Shown piece after piece: positions 4,025 to 15,317 of a stretch of DNA of 64,000 nt. Positions within the stretch are counted from its first letter, which is position 1. Each line of letters opens with the position of its first letter. The stretch is from Patescibacteria group bacterium (GTDB lineage: Bacteria; Patescibacteriota; Patescibacteriia; Patescibacteriales; WJLG01). The DNA is taken from positions 98,737 to 162,736 of the forward strand of contig JAQTUZ010000001.1 in the NCBI GenBank assembly GCA_028707065.1, read 5' to 3'. The position numbers and the translations under genes are program-made. The notes beneath the pieces are model-generated. The model was not told the DNA's origin and ran no database searches. It was given only the letters and a program-made list of their open reading frames with translations.

Positions 4025-5659
4025 TTGTCAATGAAAATCGTTAAAAATATCTTAAAATCGTTGAATAACAGGAAAATCGCCATGCTCGGGCTGGGGGTGG
4101 AAAATTTGGCGTTGGTGAAATATTTGTTACGCCGCAGTCCCGCGGCGGAGACTGCGGCGGGGCAAGGTTTGCACATTACCGTTTGTGATCCAAAGTCGGC
4201 GGCGGAATTGGGCGACAGATATTTGGAAATCAAGCAGCTGGCGAAGAAGAATAAATTGCCGGAAATAATTCTGATGACCGGCAAGAATTATGACGCGCAT
4301 CTGGCGGATTTTGACATTATTTTCCGTTCGCCCGGCTATCCGCTGTTCAATCCGAATTTGCTCAAAGCGAAAAAGGCCGGCGTGATAATTTCCAGCCCGA
4401 TGAAATTATTTTTTGAATTGTGTCCGACGAAAAATATCATCGGCGTCACCGGCTCGAAAGGTAAAGGCACGACTTCGTCGCTGATTTATGAAATTTTAAA
4501 AAAAGCCACAACCACCCCCGGAACCACCCCCAAACCCCTCCTTCGAAAGGAGGGGAGAGTTTGGCTGGGTGGAAATATCGGCAATGCGCCGTTTGAATTT
4601 ATCGAGAAAATAAAGCCGAAGGATTTCGTGGTTTTGGAATTATCCAGTTTTCAATTGGAAGATTTGGATGTGAGTCCGCATATTGCCGTGGTCACGAATT
4701 TATTCAAAGAACATTTGGCTCCGGCCGATCCGAACAATCCGAATTATCATCGGTCAATGAAAGATTATTGGGCGGCGAAAGCGAATATTTTCTCGCACCA
4801 GCAAAAAAATGATTATTTGGTTATAAATGAAAAATTGAAAAACAAAATTCCCCTCTCGAGAGGGGTGGCCGCGCCGCGCGGACGGGGTGTGTTAAATGGC
4901 GGCACAAAAGTAATCTTTTGTTCTAGCTCTGCTTTGCCAAGTAATTTGATTGGGGCGCATAACAAAGAAAACTTGGCGGCGGCCGAGGCGGTGGCGAAAA
5001 TTTTGAAGATCAAGCCGGAAATCGTGGCGCGGGCGGTGAAAAATTTCCAGGGCTTGCCGCATCGGCTCGAATTTGTGGCTGAAATTAACGGCGTCAGATA
5101 TTTTGATGATAGCTTTGCGACCGTGCCCGATGTTTCGGTAATCGCGCTTAAAGCGGTCGGCGGAAAGTCCCCTCTCGAGAGGCCCACCTACGCTAAAGCT
5201 CCGGTAGGGCAAGGGTGGCCAACCTTAAAAGAGATAGCTTGTCCAACGAAGCTCCGCCGCGGAGCGAAGTTGGAGGGTGTGTTAAAGTTGGGTGGTAGTA
5301 AAAGCGAGATTGCTTCGCGAGGCGCTCGCAATGACAAAAATATAATATTGTTGGCCGGCGGCGCGGACAAAGGTTCGGATTTTAAAAAATTCGCCCAAGA
5401 AATAACCAAGCGCGTAAAATATTTAATTTTATTCAAAGGCAAAGGGACGGATAGATTGAAGAAAGAATTACAAATTACAAATTACAAATTTCCGATCATT
5501 GCAGTTGACACTATGAAAAAAGCTGTGGAAATTGCCAGACGAGAGGCGGAGTTGGGCGACGTTATCCTGCTTTCCACCGGTTGCGCCAGCTTCGGCTGTT
5601 TTAAAAATTATAAAGAACGAGGTGACTTTTTCAAGGAGGAGACGCTAAAAAACAAATAA
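4025..5659 (+). CDS. murD: UDP-N-acetylmuramoylalanine--D-glutamate ligase with several repeat-derived insertions
   Basis: 544 aa; Mur ligase P-loop GVTGSKGKGTT, GGNIGNAPFEF, HRLEFV, LLAGGADKGSDF; extra segments match dispersed repeats. Confidence 0.9.
   Translation: MSMKIVKNILKSLNNRKIAMLGLGVENLALVKYLLRRSPAAETAAGQGLHITVCDPKSAAELGDRYLEIKQLAKKNKLPEIILMTGKNYDAHLADFDIIFRSPGYPLFNPNLLKAKKAGVIISSPMKLFFELCPTKNIIGVTGSKGKGTTSSLIYEILKKATTTPGTTPKPLLRKEGRVWLGGNIGNAPFEFIEKIKPKDFVVLELSSFQLEDLDVSPHIAVVTNLFKEHLAPADPNNPNYHRSMKDYWAAKANIFSHQQKNDYLVINEKLKNKIPLSRGVAAPRGRGVLNGGTKVIFCSSSALPSNLIGAHNKENLAAAEAVAKILKIKPEIVARAVKNFQGLPHRLEFVAEINGVRYFDDSFATVPDVSVIALKAVGGKSPLERPTYAKAPVGQGWPTLKEIACPTKLRRGAKLEGVLKLGGSKSEIASRGARNDKNIILLAGGADKGSDFKKFAQEITKRVKYLILFKGKGTDRLKKELQITNYKFPIIAVDTMKKAVEIARREAELGDVILLSTGCASFGCFKNYKERGDFFKEETLKNK
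4511..4555 (+). repeat. family B element (with a 9-nt partial duplication), in frame in murD
   Basis: ACCACCCCCgga-ACCACCCCCAAACCCCTCCTTCGAAAGGAGGGG; peptide TTPGTTPKPLLRKEG right after the P-loop. Confidence 0.85.
4849..4896 (+). repeat. family A element, in frame in murD
   Basis: TCCCCTCTCGAGAGGGGTG-GCCGCGCCGCGCGGAC-GGGGTGTGTTAAA; peptide IPLSRGVAAPRGRGVLN. Confidence 0.85.
5168..5285 (+). repeat. long-A element (about 118 nt), in frame in murD
   Basis: Collinear with the intergenic copy at 60891-61008, about 85 percent identical by eye; shared GCTCCGCCGCGGAGC hairpin. Confidence 0.85.
5307..5339 (-). repeat. family C hairpin (ATTGC/GCAAT variant), in frame in murD
   Basis: Reverse complement reads TTTTGTCATTGCGAGCGCCTCGCGAAGCAATCT, collinear with TTTTGTCATCCTGAGCGCCGCGCGAAGGATCT at 10466. 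Confidence 0.75.
5467..5491 (+). repeat. (ATTACAA)x3 heptamer tract inside murD
   Basis: Tandem heptamers read in frame as LQITNYKF. Confidence 0.8.
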
Positions 5660-6258: not shown

Positions 6259-7503
6259 ATGCTGGAAAATGAAAATCAGGAACAAAATAACTTAAATTTC
6301 CCCGAGGGGTTTCTTTGGGGAGTTTCGACTTCGGCTTATCAAATCGAAGGCGGGATCACTAATGATTGGAGCCAATGGGAAATGTCGGAAAAACGGCTGA
6401 AAGCTTTGCGCGATAAAAAATTGAATTACCGCGATTTTGTCGCCGGTCAGGCTTGCGATTCTTATCATCGTTACGAAGAGGATGCGGAGATGGTGAAAGC
6501 TTTGAATTGCGGCGCCTATCGCTTGAGTTTGGAATGGTCGCGGATTGAACCGAGAGAAGGCGAGTTCGATCGCGAGCAGATCGAACATTATCGGCAAGTG
6601 CTGATGGCTTTCAAAGAAAAAAATATCAAAATAGTTCTGACGCTCTGGCATTGGACCAATCCGCTTTGGCTCGTCAACGAGGGCGGTTGGAGCAATAAAA
6701 AAGCCGTGGTTTATTTCGCCCGCTATGCGGAATTCGTGGCGGCCGAATTAGGCGACTTGGTCGATTTCTGGGTGACGGTCAACGAGCCGACTATCCATGT
6801 TCATAAAGGATATTTCATCGGTCAGTTTCCGCCGAACAAAAAGAATTATTTTTTAGGAGCGAAAGCTTTTCTAAATCTGGCGGCGGCGCACAAAAAAGCG
6901 TATGAAATCATCCATCGAACAAACTTGCGCGCTAACGTCGGTTTTACCCATTTAGGCGATAATTTTTATCCGGCGCGCAGCTGGTTTTTGCCGGAAATTA
7001 TTTTGGCCTGGTTTTTGAATCTGGTCTGCAATAATCTGTTCATCAGCTTGGTCAAAAAAGAATGCGATTTTATCGGCCTGGATTATTATTTTTCCAACCG
7101 GATCGTCTGGCATCCGCCCTTCCTTAAAAATTTAAACAAAGAAATGAATGATTTCGGCTGGGAAATTTTTCCCCAGGGTATTTATGAAATATTGAAAAAA
7201 CTGCGCCGCTTTAAAAAGCCGATTTATATTATGGAGAACGGCATCGCCGACGCGGCTGATGCCAAGCGGGAAAAATTCATCGTCGACCATTTGTTTTATG
7301 TCCATAAAGCTATTGCCGAAGGCGAAGATATCCGCGGGTATTTTCATTGGTCGCTTTTGGATAATTTCGAATGGGCGGCCGGCTATACCATGAAATTCGG
7401 CCTTTATTCCGTCGACCGTCAGACTTTCCAGCGCACCCCCCGGCCCAGCGCGGCGGTCTATGCGGAAATCTGCCGGACGAATCAGATAACAGTTAAGAGA
7501 TGA
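6259..7503 (+). CDS. glycoside hydrolase family 1 beta-glucosidase
   Basis: 414 aa; GH1 signatures FLWGVSTSAYQIEG, acid/base TVNEP, nucleophile YIMENG, WSLLDNFEW. Confidence 0.9.
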   Translation: MLENENQEQNNLNFPEGFLWGVSTSAYQIEGGITNDWSQWEMSEKRLKALRDKKLNYRDFVAGQACDSYHRYEEDAEMVKALNCGAYRLSLEWSRIEPREGEFDREQIEHYRQVLMAFKEKNIKIVLTLWHWTNPLWLVNEGGWSNKKAVVYFARYAEFVAAELGDLVDFWVTVNEPTIHVHKGYFIGQFPPNKKNYFLGAKAFLNLAAAHKKAYEIIHRTNLRANVGFTHLGDNFYPARSWFLPEIILAWFLNLVCNNLFISLVKKECDFIGLDYYFSNRIVWHPPFLKNLNKEMNDFGWEIFPQGIYEILKKLRRFKKPIYIMENGIADAADAKREKFIVDHLFYVHKAIAEGEDIRGYFHWSLLDNFEWAAGYTMKFGLYSVDRQTFQRTPRPSAAVYAEICRTNQITVKR

Positions 7504-10465: not shown

Positions 10466-10623
10466 TTTTGTCATCCTGAGCGCCGCGCGAAGGATCTATT
10501 GTCCGAGAAAAATATCAAAATATCATTAAATATTAGAATCGATATGGCGATAAAAATTTTGGAAACGGAAATTTAACCTTCCTGCAATATAGATCCTTCG
10601 TCTCACGACTCAGGATGACAAAA
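10466..10623. mobile_element. MITE-like element with family C terminal inverted repeats
   Basis: TTTTGTCATCCTGAG..GAAGGATCTAT at the left, its reverse complement at the right, about 85 nt AT-rich core, no ORF. Confidence 0.65.
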
Positions 10624-10629
10624 TAATTT

Positions 10630-10723
10630 GGAGATGTGCCAGAGTGGTCGCCCGCTACGTCGGCCTTTGGCCGCGAGCGGGTCCGCGCACGCCGCCATCG
10701 GGCGGCGATGTCGCGGAAATGGG
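10630..10723 (+). pseudogene. duplicated 5' part of tRNA-Ser interrupted in the D-loop by a family E element
   Basis: GGAGATGTGCCAGAGTGGTCG [67 nt] AATGGG versus intact GGAGAGGTGCCAGAGTGGTCGAATGGG at 10980. Confidence 0.7.
10651..10717 (+). repeat. family E GC-rich double-hairpin element
   Basis: CCCGCTACGTCGGCC..GGCCGCGAGCGGGTCCGCGCA..ATGTCGCGGA; a reverse-complement copy lies at 15234-15297. Confidence 0.85.
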
Positions 10724-10729
10724 ATTATT

Positions 10730-10975
10730 ATGTATTATGTTTATTTTATAAAAAGTTTTAAAAATGGGAGTTTGTATATTGGATCAACGGAAGATTTAAG
10801 AAAAAGACTGGCGGAACATAACGCGGGAAGAACCCAATCAACCAAACCATTTTGTCCCTGGGGAGTTGTATATTATGAGGCTCATTTGAGTAAGGAATTA
10901 GCCAGACGAGCGGAAATATTTTATAAGACTGGGCAAGGGCGAAGACAAGTAAAGAAAAAATTAGGAATTGAATAA
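10730..10975 (+). CDS. GIY-YIG nuclease family protein
   Basis: MYYVYFIKS..GSLYIGSTEDLRKRLAEHN is a GIY-YIG core; start moved from 10628 to the in-frame ATG 10730 because upstream codons are tRNA fragment plus repeat. Confidence 0.8.
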   Translation: MYYVYFIKSFKNGSLYIGSTEDLRKRLAEHNAGRTQSTKPFCPWGVVYYEAHLSKELARRAEIFYKTGQGRRQVKKKLGIE

Positions 10976-10979
10976 TTTT

Positions 10980-11066
10980 GGAGAGGTGCCAGAGTGGTCG
11001 AATGGGCTTGACTCGAAATCAAGTGTGTTCGCAAGAATACCGAGGGTTCGAATCCCTCCCTCTCCG
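10980..11066 (+). tRNA. tRNA-Ser (anticodon CGA)
   Basis: Hand-folded cloverleaf: acceptor GGAGAGG/CCTCTCC, anticodon arm CTTGA-CTCGAAA-TCAAG, long variable arm, T-loop TTCGAAT. Confidence 0.9.
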
Positions 11067-11108
11067 CTAGAAAATTTAAATTACATTGCTAAAATGTAAA
11101 ATAACCTT

Positions 11109-11426
11109 ATGGGTTTATTAGATTTTTTATCAGAAATTTTTGATGGAAATTCCAGTAGAGAAAATAAAACATATATTGATGAAAACGGTTATAGAAGGTT
11201 TTCAGACTCCGATAAATTAGTAAGCCGTTGGATAGTTGAGAAAAAATTAGGCAGGAGACTTAATCAGGACGAAGAGGTTCACCACAGAGACAGAAACAAG
11301 TTAAATAATCGCCCAGGCAATCTCGAAGCCCTAACTCCTGAGGAGCATAACAGAGAACATGGACTTCCAGATGATTATAATTTAGATTATGATAATGATC
11401 TTGATGATTATGACGATGACTTTTAG
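11109..11426 (+). CDS. HNH endonuclease with acidic C-terminal tail
   Basis: EEVHHRDRNKLNNRPGNLEALTPEEHNREH is an HNH motif. Confidence 0.8.
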   Translation: MGLLDFLSEIFDGNSSRENKTYIDENGYRRFSDSDKLVSRWIVEKKLGRRLNQDEEVHHRDRNKLNNRPGNLEALTPEEHNREHGLPDDYNLDYDNDLDDYDDDF

Positions 11427-11484
11427 GGCGTGATATTCCTTACTAGGGTCCCAACTTCGTCCCGCGCACCCCGCTAACTAAAAT

Positions 11485-11509
11485 AACCCGACCGCCGGGT
11501 TGTTTTTTT
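11485..11509 (+). terminator. rho-independent terminator
   Basis: AACCCG-accgc-CGGGTT followed by a T7 run. Confidence 0.7.
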
Positions 11510-11549
11510 AAAGTCGGGGAAATGCTATAATTTGGGCATAATTATAATC

Positions 11550-12587
11550 ATGGACAAATTTATGAAAGACAAATTTTTAAACATTTGTTTGATCGTCGTT
11601 ATCCTGCTTATCGCCGCGGGCGGGACTCTGTATTTTAATCGCCAAAAAATTTCCTGGCTAGAAAACAAAAATAATCCCGCGCCGAGCACGTTGGTTGGGA
11701 ATGACCGCGACGCGCATGGTTGCATCGGTTCAGCCGGATATTCCTGGTGCGAAGTCAAACAAAAATGTTTGCGCTCCTGGGAAGAGCCTTGCGTAGCGGC
11801 TACCAGTTCGAACATCGTCAAATATTTTTGCCAGGAAGGAATCTTGCGGGCGAATTATGGCACCAGTTCGGTGGGCTTGATATTAAAAAATGGCAGCACC
11901 ATGACTTTGCCGCAAACCAGATCCGGCTCGGGGATTCGTTATGAAGAAGGATCGACGGTATTGGCGAGCAAAGGCGATAACGCTTTCTTGACGCAAAAAG
12001 ATATTACAACATATACTAACTGCGTTGCCGGCAATCAAACCGTTTCCGGCGATACCGCTACTTACACCGACGCGGAAAAGACTTTTTCTTTTTCTCGCCC
12101 CAATCAATTTGTTTTGTCTGGCGGAGAAATTGGTTTTTCGCAGAGCTGGAGTTATAATTCAAGCGGCCTGGGATCGCTTTTGGCCGTCGTGGATATTCCC
12201 CGCTCGTTTATGCCGGGGACAAATTTTGGCGAAGCAAAATTTACGGTGGGCGCCAGCGGCGATCCGGCTGAAGTGAAGAATTGTTTAAAATCAAACTACG
12301 GAGAGATGGGGTCGACTACCAAGGCGACTATCGGCGATCGCAATTTCACCAAAATAAATTTTACCGATGCGGGCGCGGGAAATTATTATGACATTACCAG
12401 CTATCGCACGCTTTATAACGGACAATGCTACGCCGTTGAGAGCTTGATCCATTCTACCAATATTGATAATTATCCGCCCGAACAAGGGATCAAGCAGTTT
12501 GACCGTTTGAAAATCGGTTTGGTCCTGCAGAATATGGCGCAAAGCTTTGAATTTTTGCCCCAGACCGCGACATCTTCCGCGCAATAA
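11550..12587 (+). CDS. membrane-anchored secreted protein with an MliC-like (lysozyme inhibitor) domain
   Basis: N-terminal TM; YFCQEG...LPQTRSGSGIRYEEGSTVLASKGDNAFLTQKD...NC fits the MliC pattern; start set at ATG 11550 because TTG 11532 abuts the TGCTATAAT box. Confidence 0.6.
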   Translation: MDKFMKDKFLNICLIVVILLIAAGGTLYFNRQKISWLENKNNPAPSTLVGNDRDAHGCIGSAGYSWCEVKQKCLRSWEEPCVAATSSNIVKYFCQEGILRANYGTSSVGLILKNGSTMTLPQTRSGSGIRYEEGSTVLASKGDNAFLTQKDITTYTNCVAGNQTVSGDTATYTDAEKTFSFSRPNQFVLSGGEIGFSQSWSYNSSGLGSLLAVVDIPRSFMPGTNFGEAKFTVGASGDPAEVKNCLKSNYGEMGSTTKATIGDRNFTKINFTDAGAGNYYDITSYRTLYNGQCYAVESLIHSTNIDNYPPEQGIKQFDRLKIGLVLQNMAQSFEFLPQTATSSAQ

Positions 12588-14100: not shown

Positions 14101-14124
14101 CGGGGTATAGTATAGCGGTAGTAT
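14101..14124 (+). pseudogene. tRNA-Pro-like 5' fragment (acceptor plus D-arm only)
   Basis: CGGGGTA-TA-GTAT-AGCGGTA-GTAT, then hairpin CCCGCCatccGGCGGG; no anticodon arm follows. Confidence 0.6.
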
Positions 14125-14158
14125 CCCGCCATCCGGCGGGACAAGCGCGCCTAAAAAA

Positions 14159-14241: not shown

Positions 14242-14297
14242 GAAATTCTCGGAGCGAAGCGGAGACCCCGCTGGATAGCGGGGCCAGTACCCCGACA
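14242..14297 (+). pseudogene. tRNA-Pro-like 3' fragment with the T-loop replaced by a GC hairpin
   Basis: TTCTCGG [31 nt incl. CCCCGCtggataGCGGGG] CCAGTACCCCGACA versus intact TTCTGGGTTCAAATCCCAGTACCCCGACCA. Confidence 0.55.
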
Positions 14298-14346: not shown

Positions 14347-14411
14347 GGGTAATTAGCTCAGTTGGTTATCCGCCCCAGGCGGACCCGCCTTGGGCGGGGA
14401 GCGCTACACCC
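14347..14411 (+). pseudogene. tRNA-Val-like 5' fragment with a 31-nt double hairpin in the D-loop
   Basis: GGGTAATTAGCTCAGTTGGTTA [TCCGCCccaGGCGGA CCCGCCttgGGCGGGg] AGCGCTACA, then no 3' half. Confidence 0.6.
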
Positions 14412-14630: not shown

Positions 14631-14688
14631 GTCCTCCTTCGCGGCATTGGCGGGCTTAGCCCGCCGAAGTCCGCTTCGGCGGACGAAG
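14631..14688 (+). repeat. GC-rich three-stem element abutting the 5' end of tRNA-Gly
   Basis: Outer CCTTCG/CGAAGG, inner GGCGGGCttaGCCCGCC and GTCCGCttcgGCGGAC. Confidence 0.6.
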
Positions 14689-15218: not shown

Positions 15219-15317
15219 GAGAGTTCTGGGGTTTCCGCGACATTCCGCCATGGGCGGATGCGCGGACCCGCTCGCGGCCCCTGGCCGACGTAGCGGGCAA
15301 GTCCCAGTACCCCGACA
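15219..15317 (+). pseudogene. duplicated 3' part of tRNA-Pro(CGG) with a family E element in the T-loop
   Basis: GAGAGTTCTGGGGTT [64 nt] AAGTCCCAGTACCCCGACA, starting 7 nt after the intact tRNA. Confidence 0.7.

Follow-up and report, generated by a model that had tools for sequence, protein, structure and literature searches.

A possible homing-type cassette with a minimal GIY-YIG nuclease gene inside tRNA genes of Patescibacteria

The tRNA-Ser(CGA) locus

The stretch of DNA analysed here, 64 kb of contig JAQTUZ010000001.1 of a Patescibacteria group bacterium (the window, to whose positions the coordinates refer), contains nine tRNA genes detected by ARAGORN, and this work concerns one of them, an intact gene for tRNA-Ser(CGA), together with the small gene for a GIY-YIG nuclease that ends just before it. 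Upstream of the nuclease gene lies a broken copy of the 5′ end of a tRNA-Ser(CGA) gene, interrupted by a GC-rich structured element that we call E. From 5′ to 3′ the components are:

10622–10650, + strand: pseudo-5′ fragment of tRNA-Ser(CGA), about 8 nt of leader and tRNA positions 1–21 (GGAGATGTGCCAGAGTGGTCG); direct repeat.
10651–10717, + strand: element E, a GC-rich module of two hairpins (CCCGC...GCGGG, then TCCGCGC...GCGGA); fold and covariation.
10718–10723, + strand: AATGGG, the old tRNA continued (positions 22–26/27) after E, and the end of the homology; direct reading.
10730–10975, + strand: stand-alone GIY-YIG gene of 81 amino acids (aa), UPF0213/YhbQ/Slx1 branch; Pfam PF01541.
10980–11067, + strand: intact, functional-looking tRNA-Ser(CGA), an allele that we call type B; ARAGORN and Rfam.

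A first-pass annotation of this DNA, made without database searches, had read the order as a partial tRNA-Ser 5′ end, a GIY-YIG open reading frame (ORF) and, 4 nt after its stop, the intact tRNA, and this order is borne out by the direct repeat, by ARAGORN and the Rfam tRNA model (59.8 bits), and by Pfam. The 24-mer TTTGGAGATGTGCCAGAGTGGTCG (10627–10650) repeats 10977–11000 with one mismatch, and the homology extends for about 8 nt 5′ of the tRNA start (AATAATTT/AATAATTTT); the copy of the tRNA 5′ end proper occupies 21 nt (10630–10650) and agrees with the window's own tRNA at 20/21 positions. A 15-nt core of the repeat occurs exactly twice in the 64 kb, while two matches were obtained in 0/100 shuffles. 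Between the fragment and AATGGG come the GC-rich segment 10651–10716 (66 nt) and one A; by direct reading AATGGG continues the tRNA to position 26, and the homology ends there, just where it had been said to end. The ATG of the nuclease gene follows six bases later. Within the pseudo-5′ fragment, E, the nuclease gene and the tRNA there is no terminator-like site between one component and the next; such a site is found at 11489–11502.

Occupied and empty orthologous loci

Relatives of the GIY-YIG ORF were collected by scanning one genome per species and metagenome contigs, the latter with an alignment of 13 closer GIY-YIG sequences as the query, which gave 95 loci, and loci orthologous to that of the window were recovered with the upstream Wzy_C protein as an anchor; L numbers designate the loci. 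No contig on record contained an exact match to the GIY-YIG protein of the window. The syntenic order is GH1, EamA, Wzy_C, tRNA-Ser(CGA) and then MliC, the last of these in L108/109 and L111/112. The first-pass annotation had placed the GIY-YIG gene in a mobile, tRNA-associated cassette and had proposed that relatives be searched for empty and occupied tRNA-Ser loci; both kinds were found, in keeping with such a cassette. The window, L016/L017 (GIY-YIG proteins 85% identical) and the P0004 contig have it at the orthologous site, and four further orthologous loci, L108/109, L110, L111/112 and L117, lack it.

The window at 10625–11067 is collinear with L016 at 4894–5337 (86% over 445 nt), and the alignment ends at the 3′ end of the tRNA. 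The pseudo-copy of the window is 100% identical to the tRNA 5′ end of the empty loci L108, L110 and L111, including T6, the only diagnostic base, and that of L016, taken with the 36 nt upstream, matches the promoter region and tRNA positions 1–21 of L111 (89% over 57 nt), from which it follows that the pseudo-copy holds the ancestral gene position. By these matches the pseudo-copy is placed at the site of the ancestral gene, behind the ancestral promoter region, and is recognizable as an allele that is functional in the relatives, which accords with the earlier proposal that the original 5′ end had been displaced. On the other side, homology to the cassette-free loci restarts in the trailer of the old gene: 11471–11582 aligns with L108 at 5305–5416 (80%), covering trailer, terminator and the MliC gene. 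With respect to an empty site, about 820 nt (E, the GIY-YIG gene, the tRNA, an HNH gene and 44 nt more) stand in place of positions ~22–85 of the old gene.

In a host tree of three flanking proteins, which is weakly resolved, L016 groups with L108 and L111, apart from the window, and the two occupied genomes are not united; within the limits of that resolution, presence and absence at the orthologous site do not follow the host phylogeny, as is typical of a free-standing homing endonuclease gene.

A different allele of the functional tRNA

The functional tRNA-Ser of the window is identical to that of L016 (88/88), and both share only 77–79% with the allele of L108, L110 and L111, which are 97–99% identical among themselves. 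Acceptor, anticodon stem, variable arm and T stem are all affected; with respect to the allele of the pseudo-copy, the differences run from position 27 onward, and the D-loop site is identical. This does not agree with the idea that the functional tRNA consists of the old 3′ part completed with a carried 5′ segment, as it differs along its whole length. In a comparison of the window with L110, tRNA-Pro(GGG), tRNA-Ala and tRNA-Pro(CGG) are 96–99% identical, in contrast to tRNA-Gly(CCC) (73%), tRNA-Leu(CAG) (81%) and tRNA-Val (87%), and the divergence of Gly and Leu suggests allele turnover at several tRNA genes.

The same mismatch between fragment and functional gene is seen elsewhere. In L032 the pseudo-5′ GGAGGAG is complementary to the pseudo-3′ CTCCTCC (...CTCCTCCGCCA) and not to the intact tRNA that lies between them, whose ends are GGTGGGA/TCCCACC, and the pseudo-copy is also unlike the intact tRNA in L018, L030, L086 and L097. 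The whole-length differences of tRNA-Ser, those of L032 and those of tRNA-Val (described below) indicate that the formation of the fragments goes with allele replacement and not with patching; thus, to judge from the alleles, the functional tRNA appears to have been replaced as a whole. That the pseudo-copy travels with the cassette was also considered, as the pseudo-copies at tRNA-Gln are alike and the intact tRNAs differ, and it is disfavored by the comparison of the window with L016, L111 and L108.

Recurrence of the cassette architecture

Adjacency to tRNA genes was counted on the 84 complete GIY-YIG ORFs with enough flanking sequence, a tRNA being taken as adjacent when it lies on the same strand and starts between −70 and +130 nt from the ORF stop. 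A tRNA stands directly downstream of 39 of the 84, against ~1.4–2.8% expected for a random point given nine tRNAs in 64 kb, and in 22 of these 39 the region upstream of the ATG contains a significant direct repeat of the tRNA. The adjoining tRNAs are those for Ser (CGA, TGA, GCT, GGA), Cys, Gln, Gly, Glu, Met, Asp, Ala, Lys and Ile. At the junction the order is a few nt of leader with tRNA positions 1 to k, a GC-rich hairpin, 4–13 nt more of the tRNA, some 5–15 nt, and the ATG. Most of the 39 show such a partial 5′ copy, broken in a loop by a hairpin shortly before the ATG. Many genomes of the candidate phyla radiation (CPR) have this layout of partial 5′ copy, hairpin, ORF and intact tRNA, at genes for the tRNAs of Ser, Cys, Gln, Gly, Met and Asp, and at a Glu tRNA gene it is found without the hairpin.

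The break position k always falls in a loop: in the D-loop at 13/14, 18 or 21/22, in the anticodon loop at 35/36 or 38, and in the T-loop at 55/56. In an automated check, the exact 5-mer that continues the tRNA follows the insert at 8 of 15 clear loci, compared with 7 of 142 control 5-mers. The repeats begin a few nt 5′ of tRNA position 1 and end variably at 11–58, and a target-site duplication of fixed length was therefore rejected. The hairpin families go with the type of tRNA: E with Ser, a pair of the form TCGCC..GGCGA CCCGCC..GGCGGG with Gln and Gly, and GCCAGATCT palindromes with Cys. Likewise, the nearest non-identical GIY-YIG neighbor is found at the same isotype in 26/40 cases, where 3.6 were expected and 1000 permutations of the labels gave 12 at most; the nuclease lineages follow the isotype of the adjoining tRNA.

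One locus (L002, 2908–4067) carries three tandem units before a single intact tRNA-Ser(CGA), each unit being formed by tRNA-Ser positions 1–22, E, AAAGGC, a GIY-YIG ORF and a 17-nt spacer, as would be expected if the nuclease also cuts beside its own copy.

Other arrangements exist. In L057 and L040 the ORF is downstream of the tRNA and a 3′ partial copy comes after the ORF. Members of the GIY-YIG family also lie within a 23S rRNA gene (L065, ~1400–1900) and near the 5′ end of an RNase P RNA gene (L100, ~1450–1800), in both cases flanked by inverted repeats of 12–16 nt that would form a stem, like an intervening sequence; and in L098 an inverted-repeat-flanked ORF stands between tRNA-Ala positions 1–11 and a complete tRNA-Ala.

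Four tRNA-Gln loci (L085, L086, L093, L097) show a feature of their own, in that 9–13 nt on either side of the tRNA are mutually complementary and co-vary between genomes, which suggests an extended leader-trailer processing helix around those tRNAs.

Element E

The first-pass annotation had seen in E the insert of a family, and a real family it is, with a second, reversed copy in the window at 15232–15297. It had also counted E with the decay of the tRNA copy, and this does not stand: E is a conserved, covarying structured module, and not decay. Folded as RNA, 10627–10735 gives two hairpins (−56.6 kcal/mol, z −4.0). In an alignment of 13 copies, each from a different genome, 92.9% of the cells of the outer helices are paired and 4 pairs are changed on both sides (for instance G-C, U-A and C-G at one and the same position), a level of covariation that 0 of 500 shuffles reached; the inner stems vary in sequence among the copies and keep their self-complementarity. 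A covariance model scores 61.5 bits at 10651–10717 and 63.5 bits at the second copy, and has 40 matches in 355 kb, about half of which are opposite-strand calls of the same sites; every site adjoins a tRNA gene. In the Ser cassettes the end of E always lies 8–23 nt upstream of the ATG, and E thus belongs to the cassette.

In the window E is inserted at the D-loop position GGTCG^AATGGG. It has no target duplication, and its flanks are mostly YG^AA (TCG^AA, TTG^AA, CTG^AG) or TTC^AA; it is never seen within a complete tRNA and can stand alone. In L030 and L032 the ORF and the tRNA are bracketed by two direct copies of E, the second of them in a partial 3′ fragment.

Rfam 15 gave no match to E over 10651–10719, even at E-values up to 10, and it is therefore not a known ribozyme, riboswitch or small RNA. 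Nor is it an intron of a working gene, since splicing it out in silico restores a complete tRNA in 0/20 copies. An IS200/IS605-like origin, which the hairpin ends and the absence of a target duplication might suggest, was considered and set aside, there being no single target tetranucleotide among the flanks and no TnpA. As to a possible role in the transcript, the GCGGA(A/G) with which E terminates, a short way from the ATG, might mask a ribosome-binding site.

The GIY-YIG protein

The 81-aa protein matches Pfam GIY-YIG (PF01541) over residues 1–68 (53.8 bits, cut-off 22.6, E-value 2.4e-14), and Y3, Y5, Y16, G18, R26, H30 and E62 are invariant in an alignment of 29 homologues. The ratio of nonsynonymous to synonymous substitution (dN/dS) is 0.04 with respect to L016 and ranges from 0.04 to 0.2; the catalytic residues are thus kept under strong purifying selection.

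Profile matches to structures are led by two UPF0213-type entries, 1zg2 (UPF0213 BH0048, 2e-9) and 1ywl (EF2693, about 7e-6), followed by Slx1 (2e-4) and the catalytic domain of I-TevI (0.009). TIGR01453 is reached with 24.5 bits only, against a cut-off of 56, and over residues 4–33, and the PHROG matches are weak and confined to residues 1–33. The protein has the single catalytic domain (~80–110 aa, closest to UPF0213) of UPF0213/YhbQ-like proteins, and not the catalytic and C-terminal DNA-binding domains (~200–250 aa) of the I-TevI/SegB type. From its size and these results, it is a minimal catalytic domain and lacks the DNA-binding domain by which the latter enzymes are defined. Profile searches, which had been suggested for both nucleases of the locus, thus assign this one to the UPF0213/Slx1 type and its HNH neighbor to HNH_3.

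An in-frame ORF of 115 aa that begins with TTG (10628–10975) crosses the pseudo-tRNA and E into the GIY-YIG ORF. Database homologues of 105–128 aa exist (P0002, P0006, P0013 and P0015, among others), and some of them are probably over-extended gene calls of this same kind.

Scars without a nuclease gene

Other tRNA genes of the window are accompanied by similar fragments in which there is no ORF:

14101–14151, + strand: pseudo-5′ tRNA-Pro fragment with the hairpin CCCGCCATCCGGCGGG (CCCGCC..GGCGGG), no ORF, 7 nt before tRNA-Pro(GGG); sequence reading.
14347–14408, + strand: pseudo-5′ tRNA-Val fragment (positions 1–22, a double GC hairpin, positions 23–32), no ORF, 39 nt before the intact tRNA-Val; sequence reading.
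15220–15317, − strand: partial 3′ copy of tRNA-Pro(CGG) with the second E copy (15232–15297, reversed) in its T-loop, no ORF; covariance model.

The acceptor of the pseudo-Val, GGGTAAT, is that of the functional Val allele of L110, and the window's own is GGACAAT; its working tRNA-Val is the L111 allele. On the other side of tRNA-Pro(GGG), at 14247–14297, a further hairpin is followed by part of the 3′ end of a Pro(CGG)-type allele (CCAGTACCCCGACA), and both scars of this tRNA are also present in L111, which makes them old. Several GC-rich hairpins in a row (14634–14688) extend right up to the start of tRNA-Gly(CCC).

The pseudo-3′-Pro fragment with E lies 8 nt downstream of the intact tRNA-Pro. 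It is orthologous to L110 at 6624–6730, with which it has the TTTTCACGA spacer in common, and the inserts differ: the L110 fragment is without E and has another hairpin, in the variable region, and in the window the reversed E is in the T-loop. In L110 the 5′ part of tRNA-Pro is duplicated too, and a hairpin interrupts the anticodon loop of that copy. There, a single insertion that split one resident tRNA was discarded, as the two fragments overlap at positions 36–48, and at least two events are required; the idea of a single split does fit L032.

The HNH gene and other neighbors of the cassette

The remaining features of the locus lie on either side of the cassette:

10466–10623, no strand assigned: element of 158 nt with terminal inverted repeats of ~33 nt (TTTTGTCATCCTGAG...CTCAGGATGACAAAA); inverted repeats.
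11109–11426, + strand: gene for a 105-aa HNH_3 protein with an acidic C-terminal tail; Pfam PF13392.
11443–11473, + strand: uncertain, perhaps what decay has left of the 3′ part of the old tRNA and/or of a second copy of E (GGGTCC...CCGCGCACCCCGC); partial match.
11474–11510, + strand: ancestral tRNA-Ser trailer (GCTAACTAAAATAACC) and terminator; alignment.

The HNH ORF had been placed 42 nt after the tRNA; the gene is confirmed (HNH_3, PF13392, 46 bits with a cut-off of 24.8, E-value 4e-12, with PHROG families of HNH endonucleases also matched) and the spacing is corrected to 41 nt. Its motif HH...N...H is invariant in 11 homologues, and promoter-like sites precede it at 11068–11102. The notion of an HNH homing endonuclease that targets this tRNA finds no support among the relatives of the protein, which show no recurrent association with tRNAs: at the homologue loci with DNA (L113, L114, L116) there is no tRNA within 2.5 kb. 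A GIY-YIG gene is found at 0.8 kb from one close homologue. The homologues P0216, P0219 and P0221 have a hydrophobic N-terminal extension of 40–70 residues, a feature not usually seen in homing endonucleases.

The segment between the tRNA and its trailer is occupied by the HNH gene in the window, by a serine recombinase in L016 and the P0106 contig, and by unrelated ORFs in L110 and L111. The large serine recombinase gene lies just 3′ of tRNA-Ser(CGA) on the opposite strand (5289–6509 in L016), and L108 has, ~170 nt downstream of its tRNA-Ser, a partial copy of the 3′ end of that gene. The 3′ side of tRNA-Ser is an integration hotspot of its own, and the HNH gene is treated as a separate and independent cargo of this variable region. 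The sequence GCTAAAATGTAAAATAACC (11089–11104), before the HNH ORF, resembles the ancestral trailer GCTAACTAAAATAACC (11474–11491), after it, and on account of this likeness the HNH segment may also have a flanking short duplication of the tRNA end and trailer.

The segment 11443–11473 contains a 13-nt match (92%) to the interior of E and lies just 5′ of the ancestral trailer, at the place where L108 has its pseudo-3′ fragment; L030 and L032 have a second E inside such a fragment, and by analogy the segment is possibly a remnant of the old tRNA and/or of E.

The 158-nt element, between the Wzy_C gene and the pseudo-tRNA, is AT-rich inside, folds as DNA with −31.1 kcal/mol (z −5.1), and is present in a single copy in the window, where it looks like a miniature inverted-repeat transposable element. 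It stands where L016 and L111 have the promoter region; the counterpart interval of L016 measures only ~42 nt, is promoter-like and has no homology to the element. The element is a neighbor and lies outside the cassette.

Discussion

The interpretation that we prefer, to which we would assign a probability of about 0.55, is that the locus is a selfish homing-type cassette living inside tRNA genes, composed of E, a short linker, the GIY-YIG gene and the intact tRNA-Ser(CGA), and lodged within the remains of an older tRNA-Ser(CGA). According to this, the nuclease would cut cassette-free tRNA genes in the DNA that codes for the loops, and the break would be repaired from a cassette-bearing donor, with the conserved tRNA sequence itself serving as the homology. 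The old promoter and the first 13–58 nt of the resident gene would remain as a leader, and E, the nuclease gene and the tRNA would be transcribed together. The cell would survive by virtue of the intact tRNA directly downstream, often of another allele and possibly resistant to cleavage, and after fixation the ORF would decay, leaving pseudo-tRNAs and hairpins as scars like those at tRNA-Val and tRNA-Pro. We infer cleavage and homing by the GIY-YIG protein from the comparison of loci, and the mostly YG^AA junctions of E resemble the T-loop motif cut by SegB, a phage enzyme to which we return below.

Several observations weigh against this interpretation. The cleavage activity and the target site are deductions from sequence comparison; the synonymous divergence (dS) between the ORFs of the window and L016 is ~1.8, which makes the cassette old, and vertical descent with losses could then account for its distribution; the host tree comes from only three proteins and has long star-like branches. 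About half of the ORFs of the GIY-YIG family have no tRNA nearby, and no relatives of the cassette nuclease were found in the viral contigs of IMG/VR, so that no vector is known. L117 has a type B tRNA-Ser (~93% identical by direct count) without a cassette, and this tRNA allele is thus not strictly linked to it. The D-loop of the intact tRNA is that of the pseudo-copy, which leaves self-immunity unaccounted for; nor does the model explain how the first cassette forms at a new loop position or why 4–13 nt of target always stand between the hairpin and the ORF. Scars without an ORF are common, and E has entered a pre-existing scar (the Pro fragment of the window compared with that of L110), which indicates that part of the structure may arise without the nuclease. 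The first-pass annotation had regarded the same duplication without any nuclease gene in related genomes as a refutation; such duplications do occur in this very window, at tRNA-Val and tRNA-Pro, and they weaken a strict causal link, although we read them as degenerate or non-autonomous copies.

These last facts feed the main rival explanation, to which we would give about one chance in four: that the scars come from ordinary replacement of tRNA alleles with foreign DNA, or are remnants of integrated elements, and that E and the GIY-YIG ORF colonized these harmless places later. In its favor are the ORF-less scars at tRNA-Val and at three tRNA-Pro positions of the window, with others in L110 and L111; the E of the pseudo-3′-Pro, which the orthologous scar of L110 lacks; the turnover of alleles where there is no nuclease gene (Gly, Leu and Val, at 73%, 81% and 87% to L110); the cassette-free type B tRNA-Ser of L117; and an inverted-repeat-flanked ORF inside a pseudo-tRNA in L091, with a short flanking repeat. 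However, the geometry across independent loci and hairpin families is too regular for later colonization (4–13 nt of tRNA after the hairpin, ATG at ~8–23 nt, a co-oriented ORF abutting the tRNA), the nuclease lineages follow the tRNA isotype, and this explanation offers no mechanism by which 5′ partial copies would arise upstream of tRNA genes.

The strong purifying selection would also be understandable if the GIY-YIG protein were a domesticated host factor, a repair or structure-specific nuclease like Slx1/YhbQ that is co-transcribed with the tRNA, with the pseudo-tRNA and E as a regulatory leader. The synteny of Wzy_C, the GIY-YIG gene and tRNA-Ser across genomes whose GIY-YIG proteins are only 70–85% identical would fit, as would the closeness of the protein to UPF0213 and Slx1 structures rather than to homing endonucleases, and the sequestration of the ribosome-binding site that the end of E might allow. 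We nevertheless hold it to be improbable. Close relatives lack the gene at four orthologous loci, and related copies lie at many tRNA genes and within genes for 23S rRNA and RNase P RNA and form a triple tandem array, a combination of absences, scattered sites and array that is typical of selfish elements and not of a housekeeping gene.

A nuclease without a DNA-binding domain could also be guided: E hairpins, as transcript or as extruded DNA, would target it, and the 13–58-nt pseudo-tRNA would be the guide or homology tag. The layout is that of the IscB/omega-RNA loci, with a target-matching segment, a structured scaffold and a nuclease ORF, and we mention such guide-directed homing as a long shot. 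Least probable of all, and hardly to be entertained for the GIY-YIG cassette, is that the duplication is the attL/attR pair of an integrase island that used the tRNA as its attachment site and brought the nuclease ORFs as cargo: the variable hotspot 3′ of tRNA-Ser with its adjoining large serine recombinase (L016, P0106 contig), the 3′ partial copy of L108 ~170 nt downstream and the position of the HNH ORF between tRNA and ancestral trailer would suit it, but the duplication is of the 5′ end, the repeats are only 350 nt apart with neither an integrase between them nor a duplicated 3′ end, and the structure recurs at dozens of loci without recombinase genes; an integrase model may hold for the HNH gene and the 3′ side.

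Stand-alone proteins of the UPF0213/YhbQ type are widespread and, to our knowledge, have so far had no assigned biology; a large branch of them now has a clear genomic lifestyle in CPR bacteria, as cassettes in genes for tRNA, rRNA and RNase P RNA. If the homing interpretation is right, homing-endonuclease biology would reach from phages and organelles to the chromosomal tRNA genes of ultra-small bacteria, and the hairpin-split tRNA fragments, together with the surprising turnover of alleles at tRNA loci, would be accounted for. The cassette would then be a natural example of an element that enters an essential RNA gene present in a single copy and at the same time makes sure that a working one is kept. 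In practical terms, the scars and the in-frame GC-rich leaders mislead gene callers and tRNA annotation, and the minimal nuclease with E makes a small, experimentally tractable system.

Comparison with known systems

The UPF0213/YhbQ/Slx1 branch shares with the cassette nuclease the minimal single-domain size. We know of no role in mobile elements, and of no linkage to tRNA, for UPF0213 proteins; yhbQ of Escherichia coli is a single-copy chromosomal gene, and Slx1, a nuclease specific for the structure of branched and hairpin DNA, needs Slx4 and has an added RING/PHD domain. This specificity of Slx1 fits a protein that might recognize E.

In fungal mitochondria there are free-standing endonuclease genes that carry partial copies of the host gene, such as the GIY-YIG ORF at atp6 of Allomyces. 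There too a mobile ORF has entered an essential gene, one intact copy is preserved through the duplication of a segment, the native segment becomes a pseudogene, and the alleles may differ. The fungal cases concern the 3′ ends of protein-coding genes in organelles, and the cassette tRNA (and rRNA and RNase P RNA) genes of bacteria, with the 5′ end displaced; the latter adds a structured element, E, and its functional tRNA is seemingly replaced entirely.

The integrase-borne islands have in common with the cassette that a tRNA gene is the target and that a partial duplication keeps the tRNA intact, but they duplicate the 3′ end and encode a recombinase, whereas the cassette duplicates the 5′ end, in an insert of 0.35–0.45 kb whose sole enzyme is the nuclease. 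Nearer in host group and protein superfamily are the GIY-YIG ORFs in non-intron insertions of CPR rRNA genes (PMC11270868), the word “tRNA” being absent from the main text of that report.

The closest experimental precedent is SegB of T4/T6-like phages, a free-standing GIY-YIG homing endonuclease whose gene lies in the phage tRNA gene cluster, as that of the cassette nuclease lies beside tRNA genes. The cuts that SegB makes are within tRNA genes, preferably at the motif RAWTSGAAC, which is T-loop-coding sequence; the enzyme is statistically associated with tRNAs of many isotypes, and drives the tandem amplification of segB and tRNA by recombination (PMC13096335); comparable with this are the YG^AA junctions in D-, anticodon- and T-loop-coding DNA and the triple array of L002. 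The first-pass annotation had judged free-standing nucleases that use a tRNA gene as homing site to be an unusual lifestyle, and with SegB as a tRNA-associated GIY-YIG precedent, and with the fungal genes, it is not unprecedented. In contrast to SegB, a phage protein, the cassette nuclease is chromosomal in CPR bacteria and consists, with its 81 aa, of the catalytic domain only, and no pseudo-tRNA leader split by a hairpin has been described at SegB loci. Our literature searches found no paper that describes GIY-YIG/tRNA cassettes in CPR bacteria. In summary, the cassette type has the appearance of a selfish element not described so far, one that enters tRNA genes and leaves tRNA function intact, and what it would bring that is new, on a known theme, is a free-standing homing-type cassette built on a minimal GIY-YIG domain of the UPF0213 type, with a dedicated structured element and with chromosomal tRNA genes of CPR bacteria as its targets.

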